From: an uncultured bacterium
GTDB lineage: Bacteria; Patescibacteriota; Microgenomatia; Levybacterales; UBA12049
Reading direction: 5' to 3'
NCBI GenBank assembly: GCA_963826535.1
Contig: CAWGXL010000011.1
Span: forward strand, 809-64,808
Length of the DNA stretch: 64,000 bases
Both the position numbers and the translations under genes were made by a program. The notes under the pieces are model-generated. The model saw nothing but the letters and a program-made list of their open reading frames with translations, had not been told where the DNA came from and did not search any database. Numbering within the stretch: the first letter of the stretch is position 1; each line of letters opens with the position of its first letter. Shown piece after piece: positions 26,439 through 59,414 of this stretch.

Positions 26439-27095
26439 ATGAATCCAGAAGTAGACGAAACATTAAAAAATAGAAAAGAATACAAAGAAGTTGTTGAGAA
26501 AATCAGAAATCTTAATTGGAAGAATCTAAATGGCGTAGAATTGCAACAGTTAATGCGTCTCTCTTATGTGTCTGCACGCGAATTTGCAGAGGCGCTGCGC
26601 ATTGCTGTCCAGCTTTATCCCGATAATCAAAATCTTAAAGCGCTGGCAGAAGATGAGTTGCAAGCTACAAATTTGTCATTTGATGGTTACAATAAACCTG
26701 GAGACCATGCAGATTTTCTAGGCCACTTTTTGGAGAAAAATGATTTGAAGGGCGACGATAATCTGACGAGATACGGAGATGCATATCGTCAAGCTTGTCG
26801 TCCTCTTGAGGATAGAATTCGTGCTATGACGGTTTTTAGCCGCGAAGAGGAACTGCCTGGAATTTTCGAAAGAATTTTAGAAGCAAGGGATTGGTCAGCT
26901 AAAGGATTGCCGGCTTTCAGATATTATCTCACCAGCCACATTGCTCTCGATAGAGGAAAGAGTGGCCATGCGAAATTGACGAGAGAATTTCCAGTTGACG
27001 ATAGTATTAGGCCGTTTTACAAGGCGAGATTAGAAATGTACCGCGCAATACCTAAATTATTTGTACCTACTGGATTCCCGCGTTCGCGGGAATGA
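26439..27095 (+). CDS. Hypothetical helical protein. The last ~13 codons lie inside a REP-like repeat.
   Basis: 218 aa. The C-terminal ...VPTGFPRSRE with its stop codon is encoded within repeat copy 27056-27098. Confidence 0.35.
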   Translation: MNPEVDETLKNRKEYKEVVEKIRNLNWKNLNGVELQQLMRLSYVSAREFAEALRIAVQLYPDNQNLKALAEDELQATNLSFDGYNKPGDHADFLGHFLEKNDLKGDDNLTRYGDAYRQACRPLEDRIRAMTVFSREEELPGIFERILEARDWSAKGLPAFRYYLTSHIALDRGKSGHAKLTREFPVDDSIRPFYKARLEMYRAIPKLFVPTGFPRSRE

Positions 27096-27098
27096 CAA
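27056..27098. repeat. REP/MITE-like palindromic repeat, copy 1 (TTATTTGTACCT-CTGGATTCCCGCGTTCGCGGGAATGACAA).
   Basis: Identical 25-mer GGATTCCCGCGTTCGCGGGAATGAC at 27072-27096, 32126-32150 and 51042-51066 (inverted). A 2-mismatch copy lies at 55846-55870. Confidence 0.8.
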
Positions 27099-27113
27099 CT
27101 GAGTAAGTCGCAG

Positions 27114-28844
27114 TTATTTTTCCGTAATCATTGAGAAGAGGGCTTCTTGGGAGAGGGCAACTTTTCCGGTTTGAATCATTTTCTTTTTTCCTTTTTTTTG
27201 AGCTTCAAGGAGTTTGTCTTTTCTAGTCCTGTCGCCGCCGCTCATTTTAGCTAAAACGTCTTTTCTGAAAGGGGGAATTTCTTCGCGGGCCATTATATTA
27301 TTATTGATAGTTGCTTGAATTATTTGCCTGAATTGCTGACGTTCTAGTGAATCCTTTAACTTTTGCGCTTTTGTACGGGCGACATATATGGCTTCATCTT
27401 TATAGACCAGTTCTGAGAGAACGTCGATTGGATTAGTATTGATCAATATATCCAGCTTTACCAAATCTGCCTGTTTGTAATCAGTCAGCTTGTAATCTAT
27501 GCTTCCGAACCCTGATGTAACTGATTTAATTTCACCGGCCAGACCCCGGATAAACATAGAATATGGCATTTCATAAGAAAGTACGGCGTAAGCTTCATGA
27601 TATTTCATGTCAAGAAGTTTCCCTTTTTTCTTTTGGCAAACTGTCATAACATTCCCCACATATTCTGCAGGAGCATAGACATTCAGAAGCATATACGGTT
27701 CGTAAATTTCGTCCTCGGAACGCTTTTCGTAAAGAACTTGGGGCATAGTAAGTAATAGGTCTAAATTAAATTCCTGCTTCAAACGTTCTTTTACGATATC
27801 AGCATGTAAAAGTCCCAAAAATCCAACTCTAAATCCACTCCCCAGATAGGCTGAATATTCTTCAGTATATGTAAGCGCGGTATCATTGAGTGTCAATTTC
27901 CCCAGTGAGTCACGGAGGTGGGCAAAATCGTGCGCGTTTTTGGGATAGACTCCGAAGAAAACCATTGATTGGGGGGTGGTGTAACCGGGAAGAGGTAGAA
28001 CTTGCGAACCTTCGGCGATAATCGTGTCTCCTACACGACATTGCCTGATGTCCTTTATAGCTCCAACGAGGTAACCAATTTCGCCGGTCTCAAGTGTTAC
28101 TGTCTCTTTAAGAAATGGTGTAAACATGCCAACTTCTGTAACCTCAGCCCTAACTCCATTTTGGTAAAATTGGATTTTATCTCCTTTTTTAACATGTCCG
28201 TCTTTGATGCGAACGTAGGCAATGACACCTCTATATTCATCATATACAGCATCAAAGATCAAAGCGCGAAGAGTGGTATCAGTTGAAGTACTTGGGGGTG
28301 GAATTTTGTCAATTATTTTTTTGAGTAAAATATCTACATTCTCGCCTGTCTTGGCGGAGATAGTTAAAATATCTGACTCTGCGAAGCCTAAAGTTACGAG
28401 TTCTTTTTTTACTAAATCTGTCTGGGCGTTTGGTAAATCAATTTTGTTAAGAACAGGTATTAATGTTAGATTCAACTTTTTTGCTACCTGATAATGTGCG
28501 ACTGTTTGTGCTTGAATTCCCTGAGTCGCGTCTACTAAAAGTACGGCTCCTTCGCAGGCAGCAAGAGTACGGGAGACTTCATAGGAGAAATCAACATGTC
28601 CCGGAGTATCAATTAAGTTTAGCTGATATTGGTTTGCTTCAACTGTATATTTCATTCTAACCGGAGCAAGTTTAATTGTTATGCCGCGTTTGCGACTTAT
28701 GACGTTCTGGTCAAGAAATTGTTCCTGTAATTTGTCTTTGGCAATTGTGTTGGTCAACTCTAATAGCCTATCTGATAGGGTTGATTTGCCGTGATCTACG
28801 TGCGCGATGATTGCAAAGTTTCGGATTAGATTCAGGTCATTCAT
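27114..28844 (-). CDS. lepA: Elongation factor 4 (LepA).
   Basis: IRNFAIIAHVDHGKSTLSDRLL G-domain and the LepA-specific C-terminal domain. 576 aa. Confidence 0.95.
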   Translation of the reverse strand: MNDLNLIRNFAIIAHVDHGKSTLSDRLLELTNTIAKDKLQEQFLDQNVISRKRGITIKLAPVRMKYTVEANQYQLNLIDTPGHVDFSYEVSRTLAACEGAVLLVDATQGIQAQTVAHYQVAKKLNLTLIPVLNKIDLPNAQTDLVKKELVTLGFAESDILTISAKTGENVDILLKKIIDKIPPPSTSTDTTLRALIFDAVYDEYRGVIAYVRIKDGHVKKGDKIQFYQNGVRAEVTEVGMFTPFLKETVTLETGEIGYLVGAIKDIRQCRVGDTIIAEGSQVLPLPGYTTPQSMVFFGVYPKNAHDFAHLRDSLGKLTLNDTALTYTEEYSAYLGSGFRVGFLGLLHADIVKERLKQEFNLDLLLTMPQVLYEKRSEDEIYEPYMLLNVYAPAEYVGNVMTVCQKKKGKLLDMKYHEAYAVLSYEMPYSMFIRGLAGEIKSVTSGFGSIDYKLTDYKQADLVKLDILINTNPIDVLSELVYKDEAIYVARTKAQKLKDSLERQQFRQIIQATINNNIMAREEIPPFRKDVLAKMSGGDRTRKDKLLEAQKKGKKKMIQTGKVALSQEALFSMITEK

Positions 28845-28923
28845 GTTCCCTATTGTAGCTGATTAAGATCGTGGTGACAAATAACTTAGGTTAAATTTTT
28901 TTGAGACTATTTGTTATAATACG

Positions 28924-29595
28924 TTGGTGAATAAGTTTTATGTATTCCTATTTATTGTTCTTATTGGCATATTTATTGGTATTTTTTATATTACACAGAA
29001 AGATTCGCTGCTTAAAGGTTTTACTGTACAGTCCCCAACCCCGATCTTCCCACTAGATTCAAATACGCTGCGGGTTATTTCTCCTTCCCCACAAAAAGGA
29101 CAGGAAGTTGTAAATGAAACACAGACGGTACAAAATGTACAGCCTACATTTGGAGTTGAAGCAGGTATGAAGGCGTCTTATTCGGCGGTTATTAAAACGG
29201 GTAAGGGAGATATTGAAATTACACTTTTCGGTACAAGTGCTCCCCGAACTGTGAAAAATTTTATGGAAAAAGCAAAAAAAGGAGTTTATAAAAATTTAAC
29301 ATTTCATCGAGTTGAGGATTGGGTGATTCAAGGCGGTGATCCTAAAGGAGATAGTTTGGGCGGTGGACTGATGCAGACAGAACTTAATAGTCATCCATTT
29401 GTTATTGGCTCACTAGGCGCAGCACGGGGTGGAGATATCAGAGTATCTAATGATTCGCAGTTTTTTATTACCAAAACTGAGGCTACATGGCTTAATGAAC
29501 AATATACAAATTTTGGAGTGGTGACGAAAGGGATGGATGTTGTGGGTAAAATAGAGATTGGAGATAAAATATTGGGAGTAGAAGTTAAGGAATAA
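28924..29595 (+). CDS. Cyclophilin-type peptidyl-prolyl cis-trans isomerase with an N-terminal membrane anchor.
   Basis: FHRVEDWVIQGGDP...GSLGAARGGDI...SQFFIT cyclophilin motifs. N-terminal TM segment. Confidence 0.8.
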   Translation: MVNKFYVFLFIVLIGIFIGIFYITQKDSLLKGFTVQSPTPIFPLDSNTLRVISPSPQKGQEVVNETQTVQNVQPTFGVEAGMKASYSAVIKTGKGDIEITLFGTSAPRTVKNFMEKAKKGVYKNLTFHRVEDWVIQGGDPKGDSLGGGLMQTELNSHPFVIGSLGAARGGDIRVSNDSQFFITKTEATWLNEQYTNFGVVTKGMDVVGKIEIGDKILGVEVKE

Positions 29596-29761
29596 CCTCA
29601 AAGCGGCTTCTAAGAGTAATTCATAGTCAACAATTCTTTACAAATATAGTATAATATATAGGAAATTATCTGGTTTCTCTTATTGGGTTTATATATAATT
29701 GGGTCTGATATGATAACCTAAAATATACATAGAGAATATCGGGAGTTCTATATATATAGAT

Positions 29762-32020: not shown

Positions 32021-32109
32021 ATTTTTTATTTAGTAAATCTTAAATTGAAATTTAATGCTTTTGTCCTAATATATCAAATCTTATTTCTTAATACAATAAT
32101 AAGGTAGGA

Positions 32110-32152
32110 ATTATTTGTACCTCCTGGATTCCCGCGTTCGCGGGAATGACAA
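32110..32152. repeat. REP/MITE-like palindromic repeat, copy 2.
   Basis: ATTATTTGTACCTCCTGGATTCCCGCGTTCGCGGGAATGACAA. Lies between the methyltransferase gene and rpsG. Confidence 0.8.
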
Positions 32153-43548: not shown

Positions 43549-44457
43549 ATGACATTTCTTGAAAAATATGAACTGCTGAAAAAATCTATACCTGTTCCGG
43601 CTGTGACGATTCCAGGTACAGTTGAAAGTGAATATGTGGAATATTGCTATAGATGCAAAAATTGTTTTTACTGCATTGATGGATTCACGCCACTTATAGA
43701 TAGTATATATTCAAACTTTGCACGGGGTAATAAGCTTGTGGATTGTACTAATGTGACAGAATCGGAAAAGTGTTATCTATGCTTTGATTGTACAAAGTGC
43801 TATAGCTCTACTTATCTAATGGATTGTAATAACTCTACCGATTGTCATTTCTCAGCATTTTTAAATTCTTGTAATGATTGTTTTGGTTGTGTGGGTTTAA
43901 CTCAAAAAAAATATTGTATTTTTAATAAACAATATACAAAAGAAGAATACCTAAAAAAAGTAGAAGAATTAAAAAAAGGAAAGCCTGAAATGATCCTCGA
44001 GCAAATGATTGAATTAAAAAAACAGATACCGCATCCCGCAAGTCAACAATTTAATAATGAGAATTGTCCGTTTGGTGATTATATATATAATTCCAAGAAC
44101 TCCTACTGGTGCTTTATTGCAACATATAGTGAGAATTCAGGTTATTGTTATCAAGTTAGTCGAGTAAGGAACAGTTGGGATGCATTTTACTCCGGCGGTA
44201 ATGCAGAAAAAAAAACTACTACCGAGCGATGTTATGAAATTGTAAATTTAACGGGCTGTTACGAATGTGCTTTTGTATATAATTGTGAAGACTGTACAAA
44301 TTGTTACTACGGGGCAGATCTTTTAAACTGTTCCGATTGTTTTGGCTGCGTTGGAATATTAAAGAAGAAATATTGTATATTAAATAATCAATTTACAAAA
44401 GAGCAATATGAAAAAGCCGTTAAGAGCATCAAAAAAGAGCTTGGGTGGAAAATTTAG
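43549..44457 (+). CDS. Cys-rich tandem-repeat protein of unknown family (paralog B).
   Basis: 302 aa. N-terminus MTFLEKYELLKKSIPVPAVTI is near-identical to paralog A. Same CxxC ladder and C-terminal DCFGCVG..KKYCILNNQFTKEQYEKAVK motif. Confidence 0.6.
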   Translation: MTFLEKYELLKKSIPVPAVTIPGTVESEYVEYCYRCKNCFYCIDGFTPLIDSIYSNFARGNKLVDCTNVTESEKCYLCFDCTKCYSSTYLMDCNNSTDCHFSAFLNSCNDCFGCVGLTQKKYCIFNKQYTKEEYLKKVEELKKGKPEMILEQMIELKKQIPHPASQQFNNENCPFGDYIYNSKNSYWCFIATYSENSGYCYQVSRVRNSWDAFYSGGNAEKKTTTERCYEIVNLTGCYECAFVYNCEDCTNCYYGADLLNCSDCFGCVGILKKKYCILNNQFTKEQYEKAVKSIKKELGWKI

Positions 44458-45630: not shown

Positions 45631-46788
45631 ATGAATTTACGTAATTTTGTTGATGTTAGTTCAAGACGAGCCGCACTGGAAGAAAATTTGGGCATAGAAC
45701 TTTCCAATATTGGTAAATATACATTAGACGCGCAACAAGCTTCCACAAAAAATTGCGAAAATATGATTGGCATAGCACAGGTTCCGCTTGGTATTGCCGG
45801 GCCACTACAATTAACAAGTAATTTGCAAAAAAGAGAATATTTTCTCCCTTTGGCCACGACAGAAGGAGCTTTAATTGCATCTGTTAATCGGGGATGCAGT
45901 GCTATTGCTCAGGCTGGGGGGGTAAATGTGATAAGCGAGAAAATTGGCATGACCCGGGCGCCTGTTTTTGTGGTTGAAACTATTACTCAAGGCAAGGCGT
46001 TTATTCACTGGATTGAAAATAATTTTGCCAAGATTAAAGAAATTACAGAGTCTACTTCAGATCACTTGGAGCTTCTCAAAATTACCCCTCACTTGATGGG
46101 CAGAAATGTTTATTTGCGTTTTCATTTTGATACTCAGGATGCAATGGGTATGAATATGGCAACAATCGCAGTTGCTAAAGCAGTCCCATTTATAGAAGAG
46201 CAAACTTCTGCGCGTTGTGTGGCTATATCCGGAAATATGTGTGTTGATAAAAAGCCAAATTATCTTAATTTCATTGAAGGCAGGGGGTATAAAGTATGGG
46301 CCGAGACGGTATTGCCGGACGATATAGTGGCAACTGTTTTAAAAACTAAAATAGAAAAAATTATTGAAGTGGCTCAAAGAAAATTACTGTATGGATCTAT
46401 AATGGCAGGTAGTATTGGAGCAAACGCTCATTTTGCCAATATACTTGCAGCTCTTTTTATAGCGACCGGTCAGGATGTGGCACATGTAAGCGAGTGCTCG
46501 ATGGGAGTGACAACTTTTGAAAAAGTGGAAAATGGATTATATATGTCAGTGTATCTGCCGGATTTAGTTGTCGGGACTGTGGGAGGAGGAACACAGCTTG
46601 CTACTCAAAAAGAAGCGTTGAGTATAATGGGATTGAATCCTAAAAAAGAAAAAAATACAGGACGGAAACTTGCCGAGTTAACTGCAGGAGCTGTGATGGC
46701 TGGAGAATTATCGCTCATGGCATCTTTGGCTGCAAATACAGTAGCCCGCGCACACCTGAAATATGCAAGAGGAGTTCAAGAGGCTTAA
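45631..46788 (+). CDS. hmgA: Class I-type HMG-CoA reductase, soluble short form.
   Basis: ATTEGALIASVNRGCSAI and FDTQDAMGMNM class I signatures. 385 aa. Confidence 0.9.
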   Translation: MNLRNFVDVSSRRAALEENLGIELSNIGKYTLDAQQASTKNCENMIGIAQVPLGIAGPLQLTSNLQKREYFLPLATTEGALIASVNRGCSAIAQAGGVNVISEKIGMTRAPVFVVETITQGKAFIHWIENNFAKIKEITESTSDHLELLKITPHLMGRNVYLRFHFDTQDAMGMNMATIAVAKAVPFIEEQTSARCVAISGNMCVDKKPNYLNFIEGRGYKVWAETVLPDDIVATVLKTKIEKIIEVAQRKLLYGSIMAGSIGANAHFANILAALFIATGQDVAHVSECSMGVTTFEKVENGLYMSVYLPDLVVGTVGGGTQLATQKEALSIMGLNPKKEKNTGRKLAELTAGAVMAGELSLMASLAANTVARAHLKYARGVQEA

Positions 46789-46791
46789 ATT

Positions 46792-47829
46792 ATGAGTGGA
46801 ATTGTTGGATACGGCGTATACATACCAATTTATAGGATTAAAGTATCAGAAATTGCTGATGTCTGGAAAAAGAATCCGGCTGAGGTAACTGAGGGTTTAC
46901 GGGTTAGTGAAAAAGCTGTGCCGGCATTTGATGAGGATGCAGTATCTATGGGAGTTGAAGCTGGAAAAGCTGCATTACATATGGCTGGCATATCGGAAAA
47001 AGAGATTGGTAGTGTATACGTTGGCTCAGAGAGTCATCCCTACGCAGTAAATCCAACATCAACAACAGTTGCAGAATACTTGGGAGTTGGCAATGACTAT
47101 TTTGCAGCTGATCTGGAATTTGCGTGCAAAGCTGCAACTGCGGGAATGCAAATTACGCTTGGACTTTTGGACAGCAATAAAATTCCTTACGGGCTAGTAA
47201 TCGGCAGCGATACTGCACAGAGTAAACCCAGAGACGCGTTGGAATATACAGCCGCAAGTGCTTCTGTTGCCTATATTTTAGGAAATAAAAATGCGGATTT
47301 AATTGCGGAAGTTCTGGCAACATCTTCTTTCTCTTCAGATACTGCGGACTTTTGGAGACGCGACGGACAGAAGTATCCGTCACATTTTGGTAGATTTTCC
47401 GGTGAGCCGGCATATTTCAATCATGTGATCAGTGAGGGCAGAAAATTGCTGGAGAAAAGCGGAATGAAACCCAATGATTTTGCGTATTGCGTATTCCACA
47501 TGCCGAACGGTAAATTCCCAAGAATAGCAGCTAAGAAATTAGGATTTACGTCCGAACAACTAGAGCCTTCGCTTATGGTGGACACAATCGGTAATCCCTA
47601 CACTGCATCCTCGCTTTTAGGACTGGCTGCAGTTCTTGATCAAGCCCGTGCAGGACAAAAAATATTTTTTGTTTCGTATGGTTCAGGTGCAGGCTCAGAC
47701 GGGTTTATTTTTCAAACAACTAAAAAATTAAGCGAAAAACAAAAAATTACTACGCCTGTCAGACAGCGAAATGAAAAGAAAATTTATATTTCGTATCCCG
47801 AATATTTAAAACATATGCACATTATATGA
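46792..47829 (+). CDS. HMG-CoA synthase (archaeal/bacterial type).
   Basis: MSGIVGYGVYIPIYRI...DEDAVSMGVEA.... 345 aa thiolase-fold condensing enzyme. Adjacent to thiolase and DUF35. Confidence 0.85.
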   Translation: MSGIVGYGVYIPIYRIKVSEIADVWKKNPAEVTEGLRVSEKAVPAFDEDAVSMGVEAGKAALHMAGISEKEIGSVYVGSESHPYAVNPTSTTVAEYLGVGNDYFAADLEFACKAATAGMQITLGLLDSNKIPYGLVIGSDTAQSKPRDALEYTAASASVAYILGNKNADLIAEVLATSSFSSDTADFWRRDGQKYPSHFGRFSGEPAYFNHVISEGRKLLEKSGMKPNDFAYCVFHMPNGKFPRIAAKKLGFTSEQLEPSLMVDTIGNPYTASSLLGLAAVLDQARAGQKIFFVSYGSGAGSDGFIFQTTKKLSEKQKITTPVRQRNEKKIYISYPEYLKHMHII

Positions 47830-48980
47830 AAATTTCTGTACTTGGCGCGTCGACAACAAAATTTGGTGAACTGTGGAATACTTCACCGCGAGCACTTGCC
47901 CGGGAGGTTTTTTCTCAAGCACTAGCAGCATCAAATTTGAAACCAACAAACATTGATGCATTATTTGTGGGCAATATGCTCTCGTGTGTTTTAGGAAACC
48001 AGGCAAATTTAGGATCGTTGTTTGCTGAAGAATTGGGGGTTTTTGTACCCGCATTCAGACTTGAGGGAGCCTGCGCATCCGGAGGACTAGCCCTGCATAA
48101 TGCTATAAATAGTGTACTCGCAGGACAATATAGGACAGTTCTTGTATTGGGAATCGAAAAAATGACTGACCATACACAGGACGAGATAACAAGTGCGTTA
48201 ATGGCTGCCGGTTCTGATGAAGAAAGGGTGGCAGGAGTTACATTCCCAGGTCTCTATGCGCTGATGGCAAGAGCATATATGCAGGAATATCATATTGGCG
48301 AAGAGCTATTGGCTTCTGTATCGGTAAAAAATCATTATCACGGGAGCCTTAATCCAAAAGCACAATTTCCATCTCCAATTACTATTGAGGCTGTAATGAA
48401 GAGCGGGAAAATTGCCGATCCCATAAAACTTCTTGACTGCTCCCCTATCTCAGACGGGGCGTCGGCAATTATCATTACCGGAGATGAAAGTTTAAAAAAA
48501 CGTCAAACAAAACCCATACATATTACTGCAAGTGAAGTTGCAACTGATAGTCTGAGTATAACTGACCGCAAGTCATTTACCAGTTTAGCAAGCGTAGTTA
48601 ATGCCGCGAGCAAAGCATATAAAAAAACCGGTTTAAAACCTGTTGATATAGACGTTGCAGAAATACATGATTGCTTCTCAATAGCGGAAGTTATTGCCAC
48701 CGAAGATCTTGGGTTTTCGGATAGGGGAAAAGGCGCGGCTGATATTGCTGCCGGAAAGCATACATTAAATTTAGGAAAAGTTATCACCAATTCTTCCGGA
48801 GGGCTGAAAGCTTGCGGTCATCCGGTCGGAGCAACCGGTATAAAGCAAATCGTTGAGATAGTTGAACAGTTACGCGGAGAAGCAGGCAAAAGACAAGTAA
48901 AAAACGCGAGGATTGGTCTTACGCATAATGTCGGAGGTAGCGGAGCAATTGCTGTAATTCATATTTTACAATCATTATGA
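47826..48980 (+). CDS. Acetoacetyl-CoA thiolase (archaeal-type thiolase).
   Basis: ...EGACASGGLALHNA... active-site Cys region. C-terminal GHPVGATG. 384 aa. Confidence 0.85.
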   Translation: MKISVLGASTTKFGELWNTSPRALAREVFSQALAASNLKPTNIDALFVGNMLSCVLGNQANLGSLFAEELGVFVPAFRLEGACASGGLALHNAINSVLAGQYRTVLVLGIEKMTDHTQDEITSALMAAGSDEERVAGVTFPGLYALMARAYMQEYHIGEELLASVSVKNHYHGSLNPKAQFPSPITIEAVMKSGKIADPIKLLDCSPISDGASAIIITGDESLKKRQTKPIHITASEVATDSLSITDRKSFTSLASVVNAASKAYKKTGLKPVDIDVAEIHDCFSIAEVIATEDLGFSDRGKGAADIAAGKHTLNLGKVITNSSGGLKACGHPVGATGIKQIVEIVEQLRGEAGKRQVKNARIGLTHNVGGSGAIAVIHILQSL

Positions 48981-49276
48981 CAACACCAGTAAAGATACAC
49001 AGACGCCAAAAGGAAATAGCTGCAGCGATTGGCAGAAAGGGGAAAATCGTTGTCTGGACGATGATCAGAGTCGCGGCCAAAGCATTTAACGCACAGGCTC
49101 CGTACCCGGTGGTTATTGTAAAACTTGAAAATGGGGGGCAAGTTATTGGTCAATTGGTTGATTGGAAACAAGAAGAATTACAATCAGGACAAGATGTTAT
49201 TTCCGTACTAAGACGGTCCTGTATAGAAGATAATGAAAGCGTCATTAGCTATACTATTAAATTTAAACCAATATGA
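48977..49276 (+). CDS. DUF35 OB-fold protein (thiolase/HMGCS scaffold partner). Short form lacking the Zn ribbon.
   Basis: KIVVWTMIRVAAKAFNAQAPYPVVIVKLENGGQVIGQLVD matches the DUF35 OB-fold core. Position immediately after the thiolase gene. Confidence 0.55.
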   Translation: MTTPVKIHRRQKEIAAAIGRKGKIVVWTMIRVAAKAFNAQAPYPVVIVKLENGGQVIGQLVDWKQEELQSGQDVISVLRRSCIEDNESVISYTIKFKPI

Positions 49277-50343
49277 AAAAGATTCGTGTTTCTGCGCCTG
49301 GCAAGATAATTCTTTTGGGTGAACATGCAGTTGTTTATGGTAAACCTGCAATAATTGCCTCGGTTGCGAAGCGCTGTTTTATTACACTTACACCACGACA
49401 GGATAAAAAAATTGAAATTATTTCGGAAAATCTTAATGTTTCGGAAAAATTGGATGAGAAAAAAATAATTAAAAATATAGAAACAGCAAACAAAAATTGG
49501 CAGAGATATATAAAGACTAATGACGTTAATTTGTTAAAATCAATAACTGAAAAGCCACTGGCTTACGCAGAAATTGTTATCGGAGAAACGCTTAAATATT
49601 TTAATAAAAAATTATCATCTGGTTTTAAGCTATCTATAAATTCAGAGATTCCAATAGGGTCAGGAATGGGGTCATCGGCTGCTTTAGCTGTTTCAATCTC
49701 GGGATCTATATTGCTTTTTTTGGGCGAAAAATTTGATAAAGAGAAAATTAATGACATCGCATTTTTATCAGAACAAAAAAAACATGGGCTTCCTTCAGGC
49801 GGAGACAATAGCACATGTTGTTACGGAGGATTTGTTTGGTTCCGTAAAGAAACTCCCAATTTAAAAATTATCCAGCCCATTGCATTTAAGATAAGTCATA
49901 AGATTCAGAAAAGTTTTTTTACTGTTTTTACCGGAATACCAAATGAATCAACCGGGGAGATGGTCAGTATCCTTCGAACAATGTATCAGAAAAAACCAAA
50001 GATGTTTAATGCTATTTTTACTGACCAAGAATCACTAACCAGACAACTTCTTGATGCGTTAAAAAGTGATGACGAGGGGAAAATACTGAGCAGTATTAAG
50101 AATGGCCAAAAGAATTTGGAAAAGGTAGGCGCTGTCTCACCTATGGTAAAATCGCTTATAAATGAAATTGAGAAAAGAGAAGGGGTAGCAAAGATTTGCG
50201 GCGCTGGTGGAAGAACTAAAGGGACAGGAGTACTGCTTGTTTATCTTAAAAAAAGGAAAGAGGTAGAAACGTTGCTGCAGTCACGTAAATTTAATTTATT
50301 ACCAATTTCATTGGGGGCAGAAGGAGTGAGGGAAGAGCTATAA
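49273..50343 (+). CDS. mvk: Mevalonate kinase (GHMP kinase).
   Basis: N-terminal VSAPGKIILLGEHAVVYG. GHMP motif PIGSGMGSSAALAV. 356 aa. Confidence 0.8.
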   Translation: MKKIRVSAPGKIILLGEHAVVYGKPAIIASVAKRCFITLTPRQDKKIEIISENLNVSEKLDEKKIIKNIETANKNWQRYIKTNDVNLLKSITEKPLAYAEIVIGETLKYFNKKLSSGFKLSINSEIPIGSGMGSSAALAVSISGSILLFLGEKFDKEKINDIAFLSEQKKHGLPSGGDNSTCCYGGFVWFRKETPNLKIIQPIAFKISHKIQKSFFTVFTGIPNESTGEMVSILRTMYQKKPKMFNAIFTDQESLTRQLLDALKSDDEGKILSSIKNGQKNLEKVGAVSPMVKSLINEIEKREGVAKICGAGGRTKGTGVLLVYLKKRKEVETLLQSRKFNLLPISLGAEGVREEL

Positions 50344-51332
50344 AAAAATTAACTGTCTCAGCCCCTGGGAAATTGATGCTTCTTGGAGAACATGCTGTGG
50401 TTTATAATCACCCATGTTTAGTTACAGCAGTTGATCAACGGATGAAGGTTATTGTTGAATTACTGGATACGCGGGAATTTCAATTAGAAGCAGGAGATGT
50501 AAATGTTGTTGGTTATAAAAAACCTTTATCAGAACTCGGCCGAGGAGACATGCCAAAGGGCGCCAAGTTTGTCGAAATCGCGGTAAAAAATATTTATGAA
50601 GAGTTTAGTCTGGAAAAAGGAATAAGAGTTACAACTATATCTGAGTTTTCATCCCAGTTTGGATTTGGGTCATCGTCGGCATCAACTGTTTGTATATTAA
50701 AGGCTCTGTCGGAATTGTTTGAATTGAAACTTAGTCAAAAAGAAATTTTTGATTTTTCATTTAAAACAGTATTGGATATTCAGGGCAAAGGATCGGGATT
50801 TGACGTAGCTTCCGCAGTTTACGGTGGAACACTTTATTTTGTAACCGGTGGCAAAATCATTGAACCACTATCAATTGACAATTTGCCATTGACCATCGGC
50901 TATAGCGGCGTAAAAGCAGATACTGTTACACTTATAAATAATGTTAAAAAGTCTTTTACAAATAAGCAAGACCGGCTTACCGAGATTTATAACGGCATCG
51001 AACTTTTGGTAAATGCGGCGAAAGATAGTTTACTCTCCACCGTCATTCCCGCGAACGCGGGAATCCAGTGGAAAAAATTTGGGGAATTAATGAATAAAAA
51101 CCAAGAGTATTTACGCGAACTCGGGGTAAGTATTGAGAAATTAGATAATATGATTCAGGCAGCACTGGATGCGGGAGCCTACGGAGCAAAATTATCCGGC
51201 GCCGGCGGAGGAGACTGTATGATCGCTATAGCGCCGGAAGAAAAAAGAAAGATGGTTGAGACGGCAATTGCTAAAGTCGGGGGGGAAATTATTCATGTAA
51301 GTGCAAATGCTGAAGGAGTTAGAACTGAATGA
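50340..51332 (+). CDS. Second GHMP kinase (probable phosphomevalonate kinase). Apparently initiates at a non-canonical ATA. Carries an in-frame copy of the REP-like repeat.
   Basis: Open frame reads IKKLTVSAPGKLMLLGEHAVV before the first TTG/ATG (50373/50376). GFGSSSAS GHMP motif. The 25-mer GTCATTCCCGCGAACGCGGGAATCC at 51042-51066 encodes VIPANAGIQ. Confidence 0.65.
   Translation: MKKLTVSAPGKLMLLGEHAVVYNHPCLVTAVDQRMKVIVELLDTREFQLEAGDVNVVGYKKPLSELGRGDMPKGAKFVEIAVKNIYEEFSLEKGIRVTTISEFSSQFGFGSSSASTVCILKALSELFELKLSQKEIFDFSFKTVLDIQGKGSGFDVASAVYGGTLYFVTGGKIIEPLSIDNLPLTIGYSGVKADTVTLINNVKKSFTNKQDRLTEIYNGIELLVNAAKDSLLSTVIPANAGIQWKKFGELMNKNQEYLRELGVSIEKLDNMIQAALDAGAYGAKLSGAGGGDCMIAIAPEEKRKMVETAIAKVGGEIIHVSANAEGVRTE
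51042..51066. repeat. REP/MITE-like palindromic repeat, copy 3 (inverted), lying inside the GHMP kinase coding sequence.
   Basis: Exact reverse complement of the 25-mer at 27072-27096 and 32126-32150. Confidence 0.8.
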
Positions 51333-51343
51333 GATTTTAATAT

Positions 51344-51772
51344 ATGAAGAAATATAATACGCCCTTTTTTACATTGTATGAGAATACGTTTCTTGTTTTA
51401 ATAGAAGATCTTGGAAAAGAAAAAGCATTGAAATTATTAAATAAGATATTCGCATTAGGTTTAAAAAAAGCTTATGATGCAGCAGGATTTAAAAAAGGAG
51501 ATCCTAATAATTTTGTAAAAGTAGTTAGCACGCGAGATAAAAATGTCGGCTTAAAAGTTAAATTTCCACAAGTAACAGATGATAAGATTATTTATCAGTT
51601 TCACACAGATCCATTTCCTAGTTTAAAAGGGAAAGTTAATCCTAGCGATTTAGATGCAAGTTATATGAATTTTAAAGTTAACTATTTATTAGGAAATAAG
51701 TGGGCATATAAAACGACAAAACATATATGGAAAGGCGATAAATATACAGAGCATGTGATCGCCAAAAAATAA
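51344..51772 (+). CDS. Hypothetical protein inserted in the mevalonate operon.
   Basis: 142 aa. No recognisable motif. Confidence 0.3.
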   Translation: MKKYNTPFFTLYENTFLVLIEDLGKEKALKLLNKIFALGLKKAYDAAGFKKGDPNNFVKVVSTRDKNVGLKVKFPQVTDDKIIYQFHTDPFPSLKGKVNPSDLDASYMNFKVNYLLGNKWAYKTTKHIWKGDKYTEHVIAKK

Positions 51773-51816
51773 AAATAATTGCATAATCTTAAATTCTTTG
51801 TTATCATGTTTTTGTT

Positions 51817-52080
51817 ATGAGCAAAAAGCTTTCTCAGAAAATTTTGGAATATACTGCTATTTTTGAACCCGCAGAGGAAGGCGGTTATGTAGTAAGCGTC
51901 CCGGCTCTTCCGGGTTGCATAACTCAAGGCGAAACTTTTGAAGAAGCTGTGGCTATGATTAAAGACGCTATGCAGGGATATTTAGCAGTTTTAAAAGAAG
52001 AAGGGGAAGAAATCCCGCAAGAAAAATCAGACGTTGTTATCACCAAAGTGTCTGTCGCTAATCCTGCAGCGAATTTATAA
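51817..52080 (+). CDS. hicB: HicB-family (UPF0150) antitoxin, second copy.
   Basis: YTAIFEPAEEGGYVVSVPALPGCITQGETFEEAVAMIKDAMQ is a textbook HicB/UPF0150 sequence. Confidence 0.75.
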   Translation: MSKKLSQKILEYTAIFEPAEEGGYVVSVPALPGCITQGETFEEAVAMIKDAMQGYLAVLKEEGEEIPQEKSDVVITKVSVANPAANL

Positions 52081-52295
52081 TGGCATCCTTTAAAGCACGA
52101 GAAATCGTTAAAATTCTTCAAAAATTAGGATATATTAAAAAGCGTCAAACGGGTAGCCACATTATCATGTATAACCAACAACAAAAACAAACAATTCCGG
52201 TTCCAATGCATGCCAAAGAACTTAAAAAGGGCTTGTTAAAGGCAATAATAAAAAAAGCGGACTCAAGCGAAGAGGAGTTTATTAGACTGAAATAA
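52080..52295 (+). CDS. hicA: HicA-family toxin, second copy.
   Basis: 71 aa. REIVKILQKLGYIKKRQTGSHIIM. Start overlaps the hicB stop. Confidence 0.7.
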   Translation: MASFKAREIVKILQKLGYIKKRQTGSHIIMYNQQQKQTIPVPMHAKELKKGLLKAIIKKADSSEEEFIRLK

Positions 52296-52298
52296 ATC

Positions 52299-53279
52299 AT
52301 GATGAAAGCAACTGCAATTGCACCATCAAATATTGCATTTATAAAATATTGGGGTGTTAAAGATGAAGAGCTTCGCCTTCCGAAAAATGGCAGTATTTCC
52401 ATGAATCTTAGTAATCTCCTGACAACAACCACCGTTGAATTTAGTTCGAATTATAAAACAGACAGTATTCAGATCAACGATACACATGAAGCAAACGAAG
52501 AAACTCGTGTAATGCAATACCTTGATCGCATTAGAAATCTCGCAAAGATACAGCACAAAGCAAAAGTTGTAACAAAGAATAATTTTCCAACAGCAACCGG
52601 TCTTTCATCTTCGGCATCAGGATTTGCAGCGCTTTCCGTTGCAGGAGCAAAAGCCGCAGCACTAAATCTTTCCGAAAAAGAACAATCAATTCTCGCACGT
52701 CTTGGATCAGGATCTGCGTGTAGATCAATTCCTGATGGGTTTACTGAATGGTTGGATGGGGATACGAGTGATACATCATACGCAGTTTCATTACATCCTC
52801 CGGAATATTGGAAAATCGTAGATGTTGTAGCAGTTGTCAGTATAAATAAAAAAGAAGTAAGCTCAACAGAAGGACACAGACTAGCAACAACAAGTCCATT
52901 TTTTGACAAAAGACTAGAGCTGAACAAAGAAAAAATACGGCGAATGAAACAATATATAAAAGATAGAAACTTTACTGCATTTGGAGAACTAACAGAGGCA
53001 GAAGCACTTGAGCTTCATGCAATTTATATCACGTCTCAACCCTCATTAATTTATTTACTTCCCGGTACCCTGCGCATCATGCATGAAGTAAAGCGCTGGA
53101 GAAATGAAGGACTTGAAGTATACTTTACGCTAAATACCGGACAGGATATTCATATTATTTGCCAGAATAAAGACAGCGGGAAAGTCCAACAGCTACTTTC
53201 TCAGATTCCAGAAGTAAAACAAATTATCCCAAACTATCCAGCAATTGGTGTTCGATTAACTGACAAGCACCTTTTTTAA
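52299..53279 (+). CDS. mvd: Diphosphomevalonate decarboxylase (MVD family).
   Basis: APSNIAFIKYWG...PTATGLSSSASGFAAL MVD motifs. 326 aa. Confidence 0.85.
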   Translation: MMKATAIAPSNIAFIKYWGVKDEELRLPKNGSISMNLSNLLTTTTVEFSSNYKTDSIQINDTHEANEETRVMQYLDRIRNLAKIQHKAKVVTKNNFPTATGLSSSASGFAALSVAGAKAAALNLSEKEQSILARLGSGSACRSIPDGFTEWLDGDTSDTSYAVSLHPPEYWKIVDVVAVVSINKKEVSSTEGHRLATTSPFFDKRLELNKEKIRRMKQYIKDRNFTAFGELTEAEALELHAIYITSQPSLIYLLPGTLRIMHEVKRWRNEGLEVYFTLNTGQDIHIICQNKDSGKVQQLLSQIPEVKQIIPNYPAIGVRLTDKHLF

Positions 53280-54415
53280 TGCAAATCAAAGCCGCTACAA
53301 ATTTACCCGCAATTATAAAAAAACTTGAAGAATTAGTTTTGGCATCAACGGGCGCAGAACCATTTGAAGAAATTTTGAAACTTATTTATGCAAAATTGTA
53401 TGCTGAGAAAATTGCAAAAAAGACACTTCCGGTTCAAATTCTTTTTGAAGGGGCCAAAAAAGAATGGCCCGGAATGTTTGACAAAAAAGACACTATTGAA
53501 ATCTCACCTAGTAATCTTACATTGTGTACAGAGCTTCTATCGAAAGTTACATTGTATAAATCTGATTTAGCAATTATTGACACAGCATTTGAATATTTAT
53601 TACCCAAAGCTGCCAAAGGAAGCCGGGGGCAATATTTTACTCCGCGTCATATTGTTGTTGAAGTTGTTAAAATTTTAAATCCTAAAAAGAATGACTATAT
53701 TCTGGATCCGGCTTGCGGATCGGGAGGATTTTTACTTCATGCTGCTAAATATGTTAATAATGCAAAAAGGGTTTATGGTATTGATTTTGATAAGCGCATG
53801 GTAAAAATTGCTCAAGCAATGATGCTTATCGCAGGATTTGGACAAGCGAATATTTATAAAGCGGATTCACTCTCCTCTACTGTTGTATTGGGTAAACAAT
53901 TATTTGAGGTTATCTGTACGAATCCCCCATTTGGCGGAGAAATTAAAGATGGAGAAGTTTTGCAGAGGTATGAACTTGCAAAAGACAATCGCGGGAAATT
54001 GCGTAGCATAGTTCAACGGCATGTTCTCTTTATAGAAAAGATTATAAATTTACTCAATCCCGGGGGACGGGCGGCAATTGTTGTGCCCCAAGGGATATTA
54101 AATAATACTAACTTTGCTTACATACGAGAATGGATATTTAAGAAAGCGAGAATATTAGGAGTGATTGGTTTAGATGCATTCACATTTAAGCCGCATACAA
54201 ATGTAAAAACAAGTTTATTATTTCTGCAGAAATGGTCCGGTAAAGAACTTTCAGATTACAAAATATTTATGGCAGTATCTAAGAAAGGCGGCAAGAATCT
54301 CTCAGGAGGATATGTTTATAAAACCCAAAACGGAAGGCAGATAATAGACCATGATTTACCGGAAATTGCAGAGAAGTTTATAAAATTCATAAAAAATGAG
54401 AAGCTTAATTTCTAA
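53279..54415 (+). CDS. hsdM: Type I restriction-modification N6-adenine DNA methyltransferase subunit (HsdM-like, short form).
   Basis: GQYFTPRHIV, LDPACGSGGFLL (motif I) and NPPFGG (motif IV). Start overlaps the mvd stop (TAATG). Confidence 0.8.
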   Translation: MQIKAATNLPAIIKKLEELVLASTGAEPFEEILKLIYAKLYAEKIAKKTLPVQILFEGAKKEWPGMFDKKDTIEISPSNLTLCTELLSKVTLYKSDLAIIDTAFEYLLPKAAKGSRGQYFTPRHIVVEVVKILNPKKNDYILDPACGSGGFLLHAAKYVNNAKRVYGIDFDKRMVKIAQAMMLIAGFGQANIYKADSLSSTVVLGKQLFEVICTNPPFGGEIKDGEVLQRYELAKDNRGKLRSIVQRHVLFIEKIINLLNPGGRAAIVVPQGILNNTNFAYIREWIFKKARILGVIGLDAFTFKPHTNVKTSLLFLQKWSGKELSDYKIFMAVSKKGGKNLSGGYVYKTQNGRQIIDHDLPEIAEKFIKFIKNEKLNF

Positions 54416-54417
54416 GT

Positions 54418-55758
54418 ATGCTTGATTCATTTGTTAACCATTCCGATATCATAGCCGCAAACCGACTGGATGCGGAGTATTTCCAACCAAAGTTTCTAGA
54501 TTTACGGGAAAAATTAAAGAGCGGGAAGTATAGAAAACTGCACGAGTTATGCGAATTTATCCGGACAGGACCTGCGGGCTCAGTTCTGCCAGCGTCTAAA
54601 TATACATCATCCGGTATAAAAGTTTATAGACCGTCAAATTTAAACGGCTGGACTTGCGATAACTCTAATATTGTTTATGTATCTGAAGAGTATTGTAGTA
54701 AACAAAATTTAAAACTGTATAGCAACGGTGATATTTTAGTGACAAGAATTGGAGATATAAAATTTGCAATTATTCAGGAAACTAAACTCTTTGCAATTAG
54801 CCCAAATTTATTTGTAATTAGAACAAAGAAAGATTTACTTGATCCGTATTTTCTATTAGTATTTCTCAATACATGGTTTGGAGCTGATCAAATTCTACGC
54901 GGACAAAAAATTGTTTCTTTAGCGTCTGTGGATATTGGACAGGTTGCTAATATGCTAGTGCCGTTAATACCTGTTGATGCGCAAATAAAAATAGGCAAAT
55001 TAGTAAAAAATGGGTTAAAAAAATTGCGGCAAGCAAAGGAGATACATTCTCAAACAGAAAGTGCTCTTGTGCAAATTATTGGTCACCAAAAAAGTAGCAA
55101 GGATCAATCGTCAAACATAATAAACTTTTCCGAATTACTAAAAGTACGCCGGGCAGATGCTGAATATTTCTTGGCGCAAAAATTCATAGGTCAAGAGTCA
55201 ATAAAATGGATGCAAATTGGTGAAATTTCACGTGTTATGCGTGGAATTGAGCCCGGAAGAAAAGCTTACCAAAAAAACGGAAAATTATTTATGAGGGTCA
55301 GCAATATAGATAAATACGGATTATTGGAAAAAAGCCAAAAATATATTAGTGAAGTTTTATATAAAAAACTTTACAAAAAATATCAACCACAAATTAGTGA
55401 GATACTGCTCGTAAAAGATGGAAAACCTGGTGTTGCTTTTGTTGTTAAAAAATCTATAAAGGGAATAATCTCAGATGGAATTGTGCGGCTACAGCTTAAT
55501 ACTCTATTTGCCCCAGAATATGTGAGTCTTTGTATAAATTCTCCTATTTGTCAGCAACAGATCCTAGCTGATATAGATGGATCACTTGTGCCGCATTGGA
55601 AGGTTGAGCAAATAAAGAATTTAAAAATTCCAATTGTTTCTGCAAATATCCAAGCAGGGCTTGTTAGAGTCATGAAAAAATCCGGTATACTTTTTCAAAA
55701 AGCGGAGGAAAATTTATTACTTGCAAAATACCAAATAATTCTCTTTATGCCAAAATAA
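54418..55758 (+). CDS. hsdS: Type I restriction-modification specificity subunit HsdS with two target-recognition domains.
   Basis: Duplicated NRLDAEYF / RRADAEYF N-terminal-of-TRD motifs. Conserved PLIPVDAQIKIGKLV and IPIVSANIQAGLV spacer regions. Confidence 0.8.
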   Translation: MLDSFVNHSDIIAANRLDAEYFQPKFLDLREKLKSGKYRKLHELCEFIRTGPAGSVLPASKYTSSGIKVYRPSNLNGWTCDNSNIVYVSEEYCSKQNLKLYSNGDILVTRIGDIKFAIIQETKLFAISPNLFVIRTKKDLLDPYFLLVFLNTWFGADQILRGQKIVSLASVDIGQVANMLVPLIPVDAQIKIGKLVKNGLKKLRQAKEIHSQTESALVQIIGHQKSSKDQSSNIINFSELLKVRRADAEYFLAQKFIGQESIKWMQIGEISRVMRGIEPGRKAYQKNGKLFMRVSNIDKYGLLEKSQKYISEVLYKKLYKKYQPQISEILLVKDGKPGVAFVVKKSIKGIISDGIVRLQLNTLFAPEYVSLCINSPICQQQILADIDGSLVPHWKVEQIKNLKIPIVSANIQAGLVRVMKKSGILFQKAEENLLLAKYQIILFMPK

Positions 55759-55761
55759 TTT

Positions 55762-55787
55762 GTCATTCCCCTGGACAGGGGGAATCC
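55762..55787. repeat. Variant REP-like hairpin (GTCATTCCCCTGGACAGGGGGAATCC).
   Basis: Same GTCATTCCC/GGGAATCC arms with a different loop. Lies 45 nt upstream of copy 4. Confidence 0.6.
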
Positions 55788-55831
55788 AGAAGATATAATA
55801 ACTATTCCTTATTAAGGATTAATTAAGAAAT

Positions 55832-55872
55832 TTATTTTACCTCCTAGATTCCCGCGTTTGCGGGAATGACAA
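55832..55872. repeat. REP/MITE-like palindromic repeat, copy 4 (2 mismatches).
   Basis: TTTATTTTACCTCCTAGATTCCCGCGTTTGCGGGAATGACAA. Lies between the convergent hsdS and the 55919..56440 gene. Confidence 0.75.
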
Positions 55873-55918
55873 CAATCAGCGTAATATGAGTTATTAAATG
55901 ACTTAATTGAATCTAAGC

Positions 55919-56440: not shown

Positions 56441-56503
56441 AGAAGATAAAGAGTCCTAATAATATAACACAAAATAAAAATATTGCAACTTGATAAGTAG
56501 ATT

Positions 56504-57523: not shown

Positions 57524-57591
57524 TAGATGATAGCAGTTAAAATAGTAAAAATGCAAGAAGAAGCTTGTAGAAATGTAGTATAATATCAAAT

Positions 57592-58152
57592 GTGAAAAAA
57601 ACTATCAACCAAGATGCAACAGGACTTGAAGAGCAAGCTATGCTTATTGCAAGTGAAATATTCAATCTTATTAATCAATATACGCATGACAGCAATATTT
57701 CAAAGTTCTTTTTGACTGACGCTGTTGCCCGCGCGTGTTATGGATTGGCAGGAGGTTTTGCCTCAGTTATCTATAACCCTCCACTATTGCCAAAAGAAAT
57801 CAAAAATACGACTATTCTGTCGTTTGTATATGCTTTGATGACCTATGGTTTCAACATTTATTTAAAAGAACGTTCGTTGTCAACTAATGCAGCACCATAC
57901 ACTCTGCCGCGTGATCCAACTGAGATTCGCAAAATTCAGAAAAAAACACTTTCATATACCTCGCATGGCAAACTAGTATCAACGCCGCTGGCGGATAAAA
58001 TTATCAAAATTTTAACAACTAATATTAAAAACCAAATTAAAATGAACGAATTATCTTTGAAAGGTCACAGATTGAATAAGAAAAAATTTTTTGATTATAG
58101 TAAGCTTTCGATGTATTGGGGTTATAACTTTGCCAGAGAATTATTAAACTGA
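57592..58152 (+). CDS. Hypothetical protein.
   Basis: 186 aa. No recognisable motif. Confidence 0.3.
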   Translation: MKKTINQDATGLEEQAMLIASEIFNLINQYTHDSNISKFFLTDAVARACYGLAGGFASVIYNPPLLPKEIKNTTILSFVYALMTYGFNIYLKERSLSTNAAPYTLPRDPTEIRKIQKKTLSYTSHGKLVSTPLADKIIKILTTNIKNQIKMNELSLKGHRLNKKKFFDYSKLSMYWGYNFARELLN

Positions 58153-58285
58153 AAATTTTAAAAGAAATTATTGAAAAATTAACCAGAGAGTAATTTTGTT
58201 TGGTATAATGGAAAATGTGAAGATATATCACACAATCAACAATAAGACTATAAGGATTAAGCTTTACCTACTCTAAAATAATCTT

Positions 58286-59197
58286 ATGGGAAGTGAAGAA
58301 CCACAAAAATTTAATCATGAAAAAAACTCACTTATTCCCGAAGCTCAATCGGATAAAGGAAAATTTCATATAGAACGAAACGGACGTGTTACTACCATTG
58401 AAGCTCCTACTGCTTCATATATGATTTTGTATGGAAATCATTTCACCCCAGAAAATCCTGATTCTATACCGGTTCATGCTAAAGCTGTATTTCTTGAAGC
58501 CATAGGTAATTGGACCCAAGAGTCAGATGCTTATGAATCCTATGAAGAGCACACTCAATACAGGCCAATGATGAAGACATTGAAAGAAAATGGAACTCCG
58601 ATTTATTTTGGCGATCCGGATATAAACATGGCGGCTGGAAATCTCGACCTAGGGGTTCTTATAGGGGAAACTGCATTGGGCATAGCCTTGCTGGCGAAAC
58701 TTAAAGAAAAAAATTCAGGAGAGAAGGGAATGAATCGAAGAGACTTTCTGAAAAAGTCTAGCTTGGCTATGGCGGGAGCTTATTTCTCCACGCCTCTTCT
58801 ATCAAGACTCGGTCGTGCAGTTAGTCATGAGACTGATTTAGGACATAGTGCGTCTGCTGAGATCGCTAAAAAAATTAATGAGGGGCATCCCGAATCTATG
58901 ATAATTTTAGAATCATTCAGGAATGCAGTCATTGCTTATAAGGAACAGCGGGTTGCAGAGGCTATGAATAATAAGCCACTTATTGCCACAGTAATGGGCG
59001 CAATGCATGTAGGTATAGAAGATGCGTTACAAAGCTCTCAAGCAGACAAGCTGGAGTACCTACGAAAATTTAAGCCGGTTCTGCATTCGCTGGTAAACAC
59101 ACCAGAAACCTTTTTTACAATACGAATAAATAATCCAAATAGCGAGCCGGAGACACTATTTATCAAGGAGTTGCAAGATCTCTGGAAAGATATTTAA
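58286..59197 (+). CDS. Hypothetical protein with an internal twin-arginine-like MNRRDFLKK motif.
   Basis: 303 aa. The motif plus a hydrophobic stretch lies at residue ~150. Possible internal start or mis-joined ORF. Confidence 0.35.
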   Translation: MGSEEPQKFNHEKNSLIPEAQSDKGKFHIERNGRVTTIEAPTASYMILYGNHFTPENPDSIPVHAKAVFLEAIGNWTQESDAYESYEEHTQYRPMMKTLKENGTPIYFGDPDINMAAGNLDLGVLIGETALGIALLAKLKEKNSGEKGMNRRDFLKKSSLAMAGAYFSTPLLSRLGRAVSHETDLGHSASAEIAKKINEGHPESMIILESFRNAVIAYKEQRVAEAMNNKPLIATVMGAMHVGIEDALQSSQADKLEYLRKFKPVLHSLVNTPETFFTIRINNPNSEPETLFIKELQDLWKDI

Positions 59198-59309
59198 TAA
59201 ACTCCTCTTTTGGTCTTTTAACACAATTAGGAATTTGCTGCCAAATAAAGGCTGGAGTAGTTTAATCTATCTTTTAAGGCTTAATTCCTAGTTGCTTGCA
59301 GCGAAAAGA

Positions 59310-59414
59310 GTTGTCATCCCGACCGGAGCGATAGCGAAGTGGAGGGATCTCATACCATTGAGATGATCTGTGGTGTGAGATCCCTCGACTCCCGTTGGTC
59401 GCTCGGAATGACAA
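59310..59414. repeat. Long imperfect inverted repeat (~42 nt arms) with GTTGTCATCCCGACC ... GGTCGCTCGGAATGACAA termini, lying between convergent genes.
   Basis: The arms share the TTGTCAT(C/T)CCGA and GAGGGATCTCA blocks. The ends resemble the GTCATTCCC/GGGAATGACAA repeat family. Confidence 0.6.

Follow-up and report, generated by a model that had tools for sequence, protein, structure and literature searches.

Hairpin repeats of probable CGTC-1 (dRS3/NTS) type in a Levybacteria-like genome, one of them in frame within a mevalonate kinase gene

A 64-kb stretch of contig CAWGXL010000011.1, from an uncultured Levybacteria-like bacterium of the Patescibacteria (the whole stretch of DNA analysed here, hereafter the window), carries five copies of a short GC-rich hairpin, one of which lies in frame within a mevalonate kinase gene. 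With a probability of roughly 0.8, judged by sequence comparison, we take these hairpins to be CGTC-tagged repetitive extragenic palindromes (REPs) of the CGTC-1 type, that is, relatives of the Neisseria repeat dRS3 with its longer form NTS, of the Rickettsia palindromic element (RPE) RPE-6, and of what has been generalised as the Ssn-related motif (SRM). The repeat family is not new, having been described already and recently explained; what is new is its presence in a Levybacteria-like genome and the recurrent in-frame insertion of its hairpins into mevalonate kinase genes.

CGTC-tagged REPs were defined by Di Nocera, De Gregorio and Rocco in 2013 (PMC3733652). In that description, a CGTC-1 element consists of a tag, either CGTC or TGTC, a stem of 8 bp whose first bases are AT, a loop of 4 nt and a tail of the form CCA; such elements form inverted dimers, are found some 20 bp at most from the 3′ ends of open reading frames (ORFs) that converge or run in the same direction, and sometimes lie in frame within genes. 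They were equated with dRS3 and with RPE-6 of Rickettsia conorii, and were reported from five phyla, Patescibacteria not among them (PMC3733652). Chenal et al. (2025) found dRS3 to be the core of the 28-nt NTS, CGTCATTCCCGCGMAVGCGGGAATCYRG, and generalised it as the SRM (PMC11893778). Its partner is SsnA, a GIY-YIG protein of 94 aa with a single domain (cd10448). This enzyme recognises only one strand of the hairpin, and that only in single-stranded DNA, and makes its cut on the upstream side; cutting and binding both depend critically on the GTC that precedes the stem and the C that follows it. Most often the motifs bracket ssnA in the manner of an insertion sequence, and the gene is present in 81% of genomes with more than 200 SRMs; in N. 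meningitidis the ssnA/NTS pair modulates transformation, a role shown for Neisseria alone (PMC11893778).

Read on the tag-bearing strand, the window hairpins have the form (C/T)GTC-ATTCCCGC-GAAC-GCGGGAAT-CCAG, in which the loop is GAAC or AAAC and the tail is CTAG in one of four copies. The tag is CGTC at 51041 and TGTC at 27097, 32151 and 55871 (minus strand) and at 55761. Four copies possess the unpaired tag, the 8-bp AT-first stem, the 4-nt loop and the CCA-type tail of CGTC-1, and within the 64 kb the element is also multi-copy, placed at gene 3′ ends and found as an inverted dimer. These four differ from the NTS consensus at no more than two positions, the kinase copy matching it throughout (Table 1), and the SRM pattern is matched four times in the window against 0.15 expected from 200 resamples. 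All five hairpins keep GTC on the 5′ side of the stem and C on the 3′ side.

The 25-nt core, GGATTCCCGCGTTCGCGGGAATGAC, occurs exactly at 27072-27096 (+), 32126-32150 (+) and 51042-51066 (−), and with two mismatches at 55846-55870 (+); in 100 shuffles of the window it was not matched once. Palindromes of the form ATTCCC-N-GGGAAT number five, where 0.13 would be expected; the additional one is a variant at 55765-55785. Copies 1 to 3 are identical over 27-28 nt and copy 4 differs at two sites of the 25-mer (3 of 28 relative to copies 1 and 2). An extended consensus of about 43 nt is common to the copies at 27054-27098, 32109-32152 and 55830-55873, which share 15-17 further bases on one side of the hairpin. 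An earlier reading of this DNA, made from the sequence only, had reported a 25-nt core in four copies, three of them exact, with an extended consensus in three, and both counts were reproduced. The variant hairpin that it placed near 55762-55787 proved to be a true relative, since the TGTC tag, an AT-first stem (ATTCCCC/GGGGAAT) and the CCAG tail are all kept; its stem is of 7 bp and its loop is longer, so that loop and stem top break the SRM pattern. Together with copy 4 it makes up an inverted dimer (55761-55871) with a 54-nt spacer and both tags facing outward.

Table 1. Coordinates in the window of the hairpins, their host genes and the long palindrome.
Feature	Position	Strand	Remarks
DUF3050-family gene	26439..27095	+	Last 10 codons and stop supplied by copy 1
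Hairpin copy 1	27070..27097	−	TGTCATTCCCGCGAACGCGGGAATCCAG; 27/28 to NTS consensus; fits SRM pattern
Hairpin copy 1 tail	27063-27069		GTACCTA on + strand; lineage-specific
Hairpin copy 2	32124..32151	−	Sequence as copy 1; 27/28 to NTS; tail 32117-32123
Mevalonate kinase gene	50340..51332	+	Hosts copy 3; ORF as listed starts at TTG 50373
Hairpin copy 3	51041..51068	+	CGTCATTCCCGCGAACGCGGGAATCCAG; in frame in mevalonate kinase (VIPANAGIQ); 28/28 to NTS; no tail extension
Variant hairpin	55761..55789	+	TGTCATTCCCCTGGACAGGGGGAATCCAG; left partner of inverted dimer; starts 3 nt past hsdS stop
Hairpin copy 4	55844..55871	−	TGTCATTCCCGCAAACGCGGGAATCTAG; 26/28 to NTS; fits SRM pattern; tail 55838-55843; right partner of inverted dimer
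Near-perfect palindrome, 104 nt	59311..59414		TTGTCAT...ATGACAA ends; between a hypothetical gene and convergent metK

The five family hairpins lie at four loci, of which two are between convergent genes, one is between same-direction genes and one is intragenic; on a count of five loci, four are at gene 3′ ends, three of these between convergent genes and one between same-direction genes. Copy 1 overlaps the 3′ end of the DUF3050-family gene and lies 17 nt from the stop of convergent lepA; copy 2 follows rpsG (S7) at a distance of 81 nt and is separated by 104 nt from a methyltransferase gene downstream on the same strand. This placement agrees with the published distribution, as do the inverted dimer and the occasional in-frame copy. 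The window departs from the published systems in several respects: three copies bear an extra 15-nt tail beyond the CGTC-1 definition, the copies are few and scattered where Neisseria has hundreds in clusters, and two of the five hairpins touch coding sequence, compared with 2% of NTS copies intragenic in N. meningitidis (PMC11893778). A match to GTCATTCC at 5347 was rejected as a copy; the site encodes the KAVIPAAGxGTRFLP motif of a nucleotidyltransferase. When the window was searched against Rfam at gathering thresholds, only the 16S rRNA was matched, and nothing at the hairpins.

The hairpin is common far beyond this genome. In a scan of species-representative genomes, an exact 27-mer was found in more than 117 stretches, and among the matches listed are Alpha-, Beta- and Gammaproteobacteria, Desulfobacterota, Planctomycetota, Chloroflexota, Ignavibacteriae, Bacteroidota, Nitrospirota, Gemmatimonadota, Cyanobacteria, Bdellovibrionales and Patescibacteria. 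This overturns the possibility, raised with the sequence-only reading, that only the window copies exist. When 126 copies were compared, conservation stopped at ...GGGAATCCAG, the flanks being unrelated, and inverted pairs in loci from other phyla have their tags outward in 52 cases and inward in three.

An SsnA-like ORF is present in 10 of the 117 listed 27-mer loci. All four such ORFs that were scanned against Pfam are GIY-YIG proteins (PF01541, E about 1e-16), and mapping of eight loci placed the ORF no more than 500 nt from a hairpin in every case, with hairpins on both sides and tags outward in four of them (L124, L152, L171 and L127). Two of the loci are from other Patescibacteria: L143, in which the hairpins stand on one side of the ORF only, and L127, in which the ORF adjoins identical hairpins, two of them paired on one side. 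Proteins named from Methylomonas, Sedimentisphaerales, Syntrophales and WOR-3 share 70-76% identity with that of L143; identity at this level between phyla, in a protein of 95 residues, suggests that the cassette has spread horizontally, which in turn explains how the hairpin comes to be common to many phyla. The dimer at 55761-55871 has the geometry of these ssnA cassettes, minus the gene. The partnership with SsnA is thus shown at the level of the family and the phylum, not for the source genome itself.

Copy 3 lies within the second kinase gene of the mevalonate operon, of which the closest named relatives are mevalonate kinases of Candidatus Levybacteria and of the Patescibacteria group. 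Among 120 orthologs, VIPANAGI is found in the window kinase only and is missing from the other 119. The window DNA reads TCC ACC GTC ATT CCC GCG AAC GCG GGA ATC CAG TGG AAA AAA TTT where an ortholog has AAA ATG GAT TGG AAA AAA TTT, a net gain of 24 nt or eight residues, and S-T-V-I-P-A-N-A-G-I-Q replaces K-M-D in the protein. The sequence-only reading had the copy in frame and adding nine residues (VIPANAGIQ); the frame was correct and the gain is one residue smaller. Its broader proposal, a REP-like palindromic family with a tolerated insertion in the kinase, is borne out by the 119 orthologs that lack the copy, and the ortholog alignment that it recommended as a check identifies the residues as an insertion, younger than the split from every one of these orthologs. 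Alignment to solved mevalonate kinases leaves a gap at the insertion site, and a weak AlphaFold model (predicted local distance difference test, pLDDT, 58) puts residues 224-232 at the end of a helix (199-224) and in the short link to the next (233-249); elsewhere in the protein the invariant GHMP motifs are retained. The simplest reading is that the kinase copy represents a tolerated, lineage-specific, in-frame loop insertion.

The start of this gene is unusual. The conserved N-terminal sequence KKLTVSAPGK is in frame from an ATA codon at 50340, where orthologs have ATG, and translation may therefore use a rare start codon or be coupled to that of the preceding gene, or else a protein devoid of the lysine motif may be made from TTG 50373 or ATG 50376. 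That ATA shares bases with the stop codon of the kinase gene before it, and a GGAG-rich stretch precedes it.

Kinases of the same group have acquired hairpins independently, in frame and in a loop other than that of the window insertion, immediately ahead of G-[IL]-R-[IV]-T-T. At the DNA level, P0119 carries three hairpins, amounting to 45 additional residues, P0112 carries a tags-outward dimer, and P0054, P0063 and P0066 have a solo hairpin in common. TGTC-tagged insertions (solo, dimer and triple) were located on Levybacteria-like contigs at L238 10001-11092, L247 1001-1990 and L248 1001-1999. The loop before the G-I-R-V-T-T strand looks like an insertion hot spot. A further short insertion in that loop, EFISGSRS, is seen at the protein level in P0046.

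These events resemble those of the Rickettsia palindromic elements (RPE-6/RPE-4 and the longer RPE-1), in which palindromic repeats likewise enter the genes of ordinary enzymes in frame, so that the proteins gain short loops of peptide. The host ORF stays open in the window kinase, with its eight added residues, as it does in P0119, P0112 and P0054. RPE-6 is itself a CGTC-1 element (PMC3733652), its likeness to the window copies being known by description, and RPE-1, likewise by description, differs in being 100-150 bp long and of unrelated sequence. The literature searched made no mention of the repeat-encodable peptides VIPAKAGIQ, IPAFAGMT and PAKAGIQ.

The second coding sequence affected is the DUF3050-family gene, the end of which copy 1 has replaced. 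Eleven orthologs end in ...PKLFEKKN* or similar, and the window protein ends in ...PKLF-VPTGFPRSRE*. The codons AAA TTA TTT (K-L-F) are host sequence, conserved in orthologs, and the same codons are present in the element-less ortholog L245; hence the element gives 10 codons and the TGA stop (27063-27095), not the 13 codons of the sequence-only reading. The tail is read in the sole frame, of the six that the hairpin offers, that contains a stop.

Beyond CCAG, three copies continue into a common tail, KAGGTAMAAATAAWT (27054-27069, 32109-32123 and 55830-55843). In copy 1 the AAATAATTT part of this tail is the host coding sequence for K-L-F, and the kinase hairpin is likewise followed by TGGAAAAAATTT. 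Outside the window, a metagenome scan found the CCAG-KAGGTAMAAATAAWT tail in only two low-GC loci (three stretches, L242-L244), which are too few to define target sites. Sequence of the type ...AAAWAATTT is seen at 27054-27062 and at 51072-51080. The pattern hints at target-site preference or at microhomology during insertion, and tail and TGGAAAAAATTT taken together may reflect a preference for A-rich ...ATTT sites, a sample too small for a claim.

The palindrome at 59311-59414, which the sequence-only reading had listed as a further variant hairpin (59310-59414), is a real long palindrome, with a predicted DNA fold of -30.2 kcal/mol (z = -6.9). Its membership of the family is unproven, as it resembles the hairpins in its TTGTCAT...ATGACAA ends alone, does not match the SRM pattern, and had no second copy in the window or in some 2 Mb of fetched loci. 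One possibility is that it arose as a dimer of longer hairpin units and has since diverged.

Taken together, these observations suggest a history for the four-part unit, which runs from the unpaired (C/T)GTC tag through the 8-bp stem ATTCCCGC and the 4-nt loop to the CCAG tail. The window copies would be gene-less derivatives of ssnA cassettes, either solo hairpins or an inverted dimer; they would have spread by insertion; and they would have survived where they did little harm, mostly no more than a few tens of bases from gene 3′ ends, and otherwise as one C-terminal tail and as one eight-residue loop between two kinase helices. On this account the source genome has, or had, an Ssn nuclease, and either Ssn or some other enzyme would move the hairpins. 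Several points weigh against it. The 64-kb window contains no SsnA homolog by a GIY-YIG regular expression, by tblastn or by a hidden Markov model built from eight SsnA-like ORFs (best E 0.3), and none of the best 120 of about 8000 SsnA-like database proteins is on the source contig. No dedicated transposase was found for CGTC-1 (PMC3733652), and the insertion-sequence-like origin of the system is only hypothesised (PMC11893778). The tail KAGGTAMAAATAAWT lies outside the published motif. Flanking target-site duplications, which the sequence-only reading had hoped to define, are not visible at the kinase or DUF3050 junctions when judged against empty-site orthologs that are only about 75% identical, too diverged to place the junctions to the base. 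Of the features of a miniature inverted-repeat transposable element, the dimer has the inverted ends. Finally, the structural model of the kinase is poor and usable for secondary-structure placement only.

The best surviving alternative is that the copies are inert relics in a genome without Ssn, which arrived with horizontally acquired DNA or in an old burst and now amount only to small hairpins and peptide tails. We think this doubtful, while recognising that the missing SsnA, in the window and among the best-matching database proteins, fits it, as do the low number of copies (about five in 64 kb) and the existence of a minority of genomes with more than 200 SRMs but no ssnA (PMC11893778). 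Relics should have decayed, a genome of 38% GC being expected to erode an unselected GC-rich palindrome, yet three copies are identical over 27-28 nt, the fourth has only two changes in the 25-mer, and the kinase insertion postdates the split from each of 119 orthologs.

It is improbable that the hairpins act mainly as RNA, whether as terminators, as stabilisers of mRNA 3′ ends or as a regulatory hairpin of the mevalonate operon, the last having been offered by the sequence-only reading as an alternative to insertion. Many REPs have been argued to be transcribed and possibly RNA-acting (PMC3733652), the hairpin is stable, and its placement at gene 3′ ends is what such a role would lead one to expect. 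That part of the earlier comparison with REPs or terminators stands; the terminator part fails, because every copy lacks a T-tract downstream and none is among the terminator-like sites. Moreover, a hairpin between convergent genes has a single orientation and could not be equally useful to both transcripts, the kinase copy is missing from all orthologous operons examined, identity of a 27-mer across phyla is not expected of terminators, and SsnA is inactive on RNA (PMC11893778).

Still less probable is a primary role as attachment sites, used by IS110/Piv-type recombinases that belong to phages or to insertion sequences, in the way that dRS3 serves Neisseria filamentous prophages. dRS3 is described as a target of a phage recombinase (PMC11893778; compare PMC2212043), and more than 120 viral contigs, several of them with two to five copies, contain a degenerate form of the hairpin, GGATTCCCGC-N4-GCGGGAATGAC. 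No IS110-family gene or prophage adjoins any window copy, all copies are uninterrupted, and such use would be secondary, leaving the multiplication of the hairpins unexplained. Three of the hairpin-bearing viral loci (L003, L036 and L087) contain an SsnA-like ORF.

The idea that the hairpins are GTAG-type REPs or REPINs, mobilised by a REP-associated tyrosine transposase (RAYT, IS200/IS605-like) or by TnpB-type elements, as the sequence-only reading had proposed, is hardly tenable: the γ-proteobacterial REP/REPIN-RAYT system shares with them short GC-rich palindromes in intergenic positions, inverted doublets as non-autonomous units and a single-copy enzyme gene flanked by repeats, but it has a GTAG tag and a tyrosine (HUH) transposase where these hairpins have a CGTC/TGTC tag, the gene between them in other genomes is of the GIY-YIG type, the published partner is the GIY-YIG protein SsnA (PMC11893778), and Pfam found no transposase (Y1, TnpB, IS110 or other) among about 60 larger window ORFs (roughly 90 aa and up).

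Assignment of the window hairpins to the CGTC-1 family extends the dRS3/NTS-SsnA system to the candidate phyla radiation. Like the Rickettsia elements, these hairpins can enter enzymes without loss of frame, and here several independent events have affected one essential kinase of the isoprenoid pathway. VIPANAGIQ, GFPRSRE and similar peptides, where they appear in annotated genomes of this kind, are repeat-derived, and the sharing of one 27-mer by many phyla is a possible source of error in binning and in searches for homologs. The insertion polymorphisms provide usable material on how the hairpins multiply. A bolder and, in our judgement, unlikely proposal is that the hairpins are active single-stranded DNA transposons of reduced Patescibacteria, moved by the GIY-YIG nuclease Ssn into A-rich sites resembling ...AAAWAATTT, time and again reshaping loops on the surface of housekeeping enzymes (at least four independent in-frame insertions in Levybacteria-like mevalonate kinases would belong here) and perhaps policing DNA uptake. 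Were it true, Ssn would be a new class of transposase and the hairpins a source of protein novelty outside Rickettsia; the idea of policing uptake concerns organisms dependent on scavenged DNA.

The mevalonate operon that houses the kinase (45631-53279) is of archaeal style, comprising HMG-CoA reductase, HMG-CoA synthase, thiolase, an OB-fold protein, two GHMP kinases and a decarboxylase. Between the second kinase and the decarboxylase (51344-52298) the window has a 142-aa ORF without a Pfam match and then about 500 nt without a long ORF; orthologs have at this position a gene for a HAD hydrolase of about 288 aa, or nothing, and the HAD gene has no detectable counterpart in the window. Directly after the decarboxylase, with a 1-base overlap, come the methylase and specificity subunit of a type I restriction-modification system (53279-55758), no restriction subunit being among the nearby ORFs scanned against Pfam. 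The remaining Pfam content of the window, the GC content of which is 38%, consists of housekeeping genes, a MazF toxin and a HicB antitoxin. Two paralogous genes of about 300 codons (14763-15677 and 43549-44457), 28.8 kb apart and with 72-79% DNA identity, have no Pfam match. The 16S rRNA gene (3322-4927) is bacterial and stands alone, 23S, 5S and tRNA genes not having been found in the 64 kb; at 1606 nt against a model of 1533 positions, it has about 70 extra bases. There is, in addition, a second family of GC-rich hairpins, (T)AA-CCCCCGCTCAGCGGGGG, of which two copies (2625-2650 and 3245-3270), spaced by 620 nt, stand shortly before the 16S rRNA gene, while a third, looser copy (14719-14744) lies upstream of the ORF at 14763.

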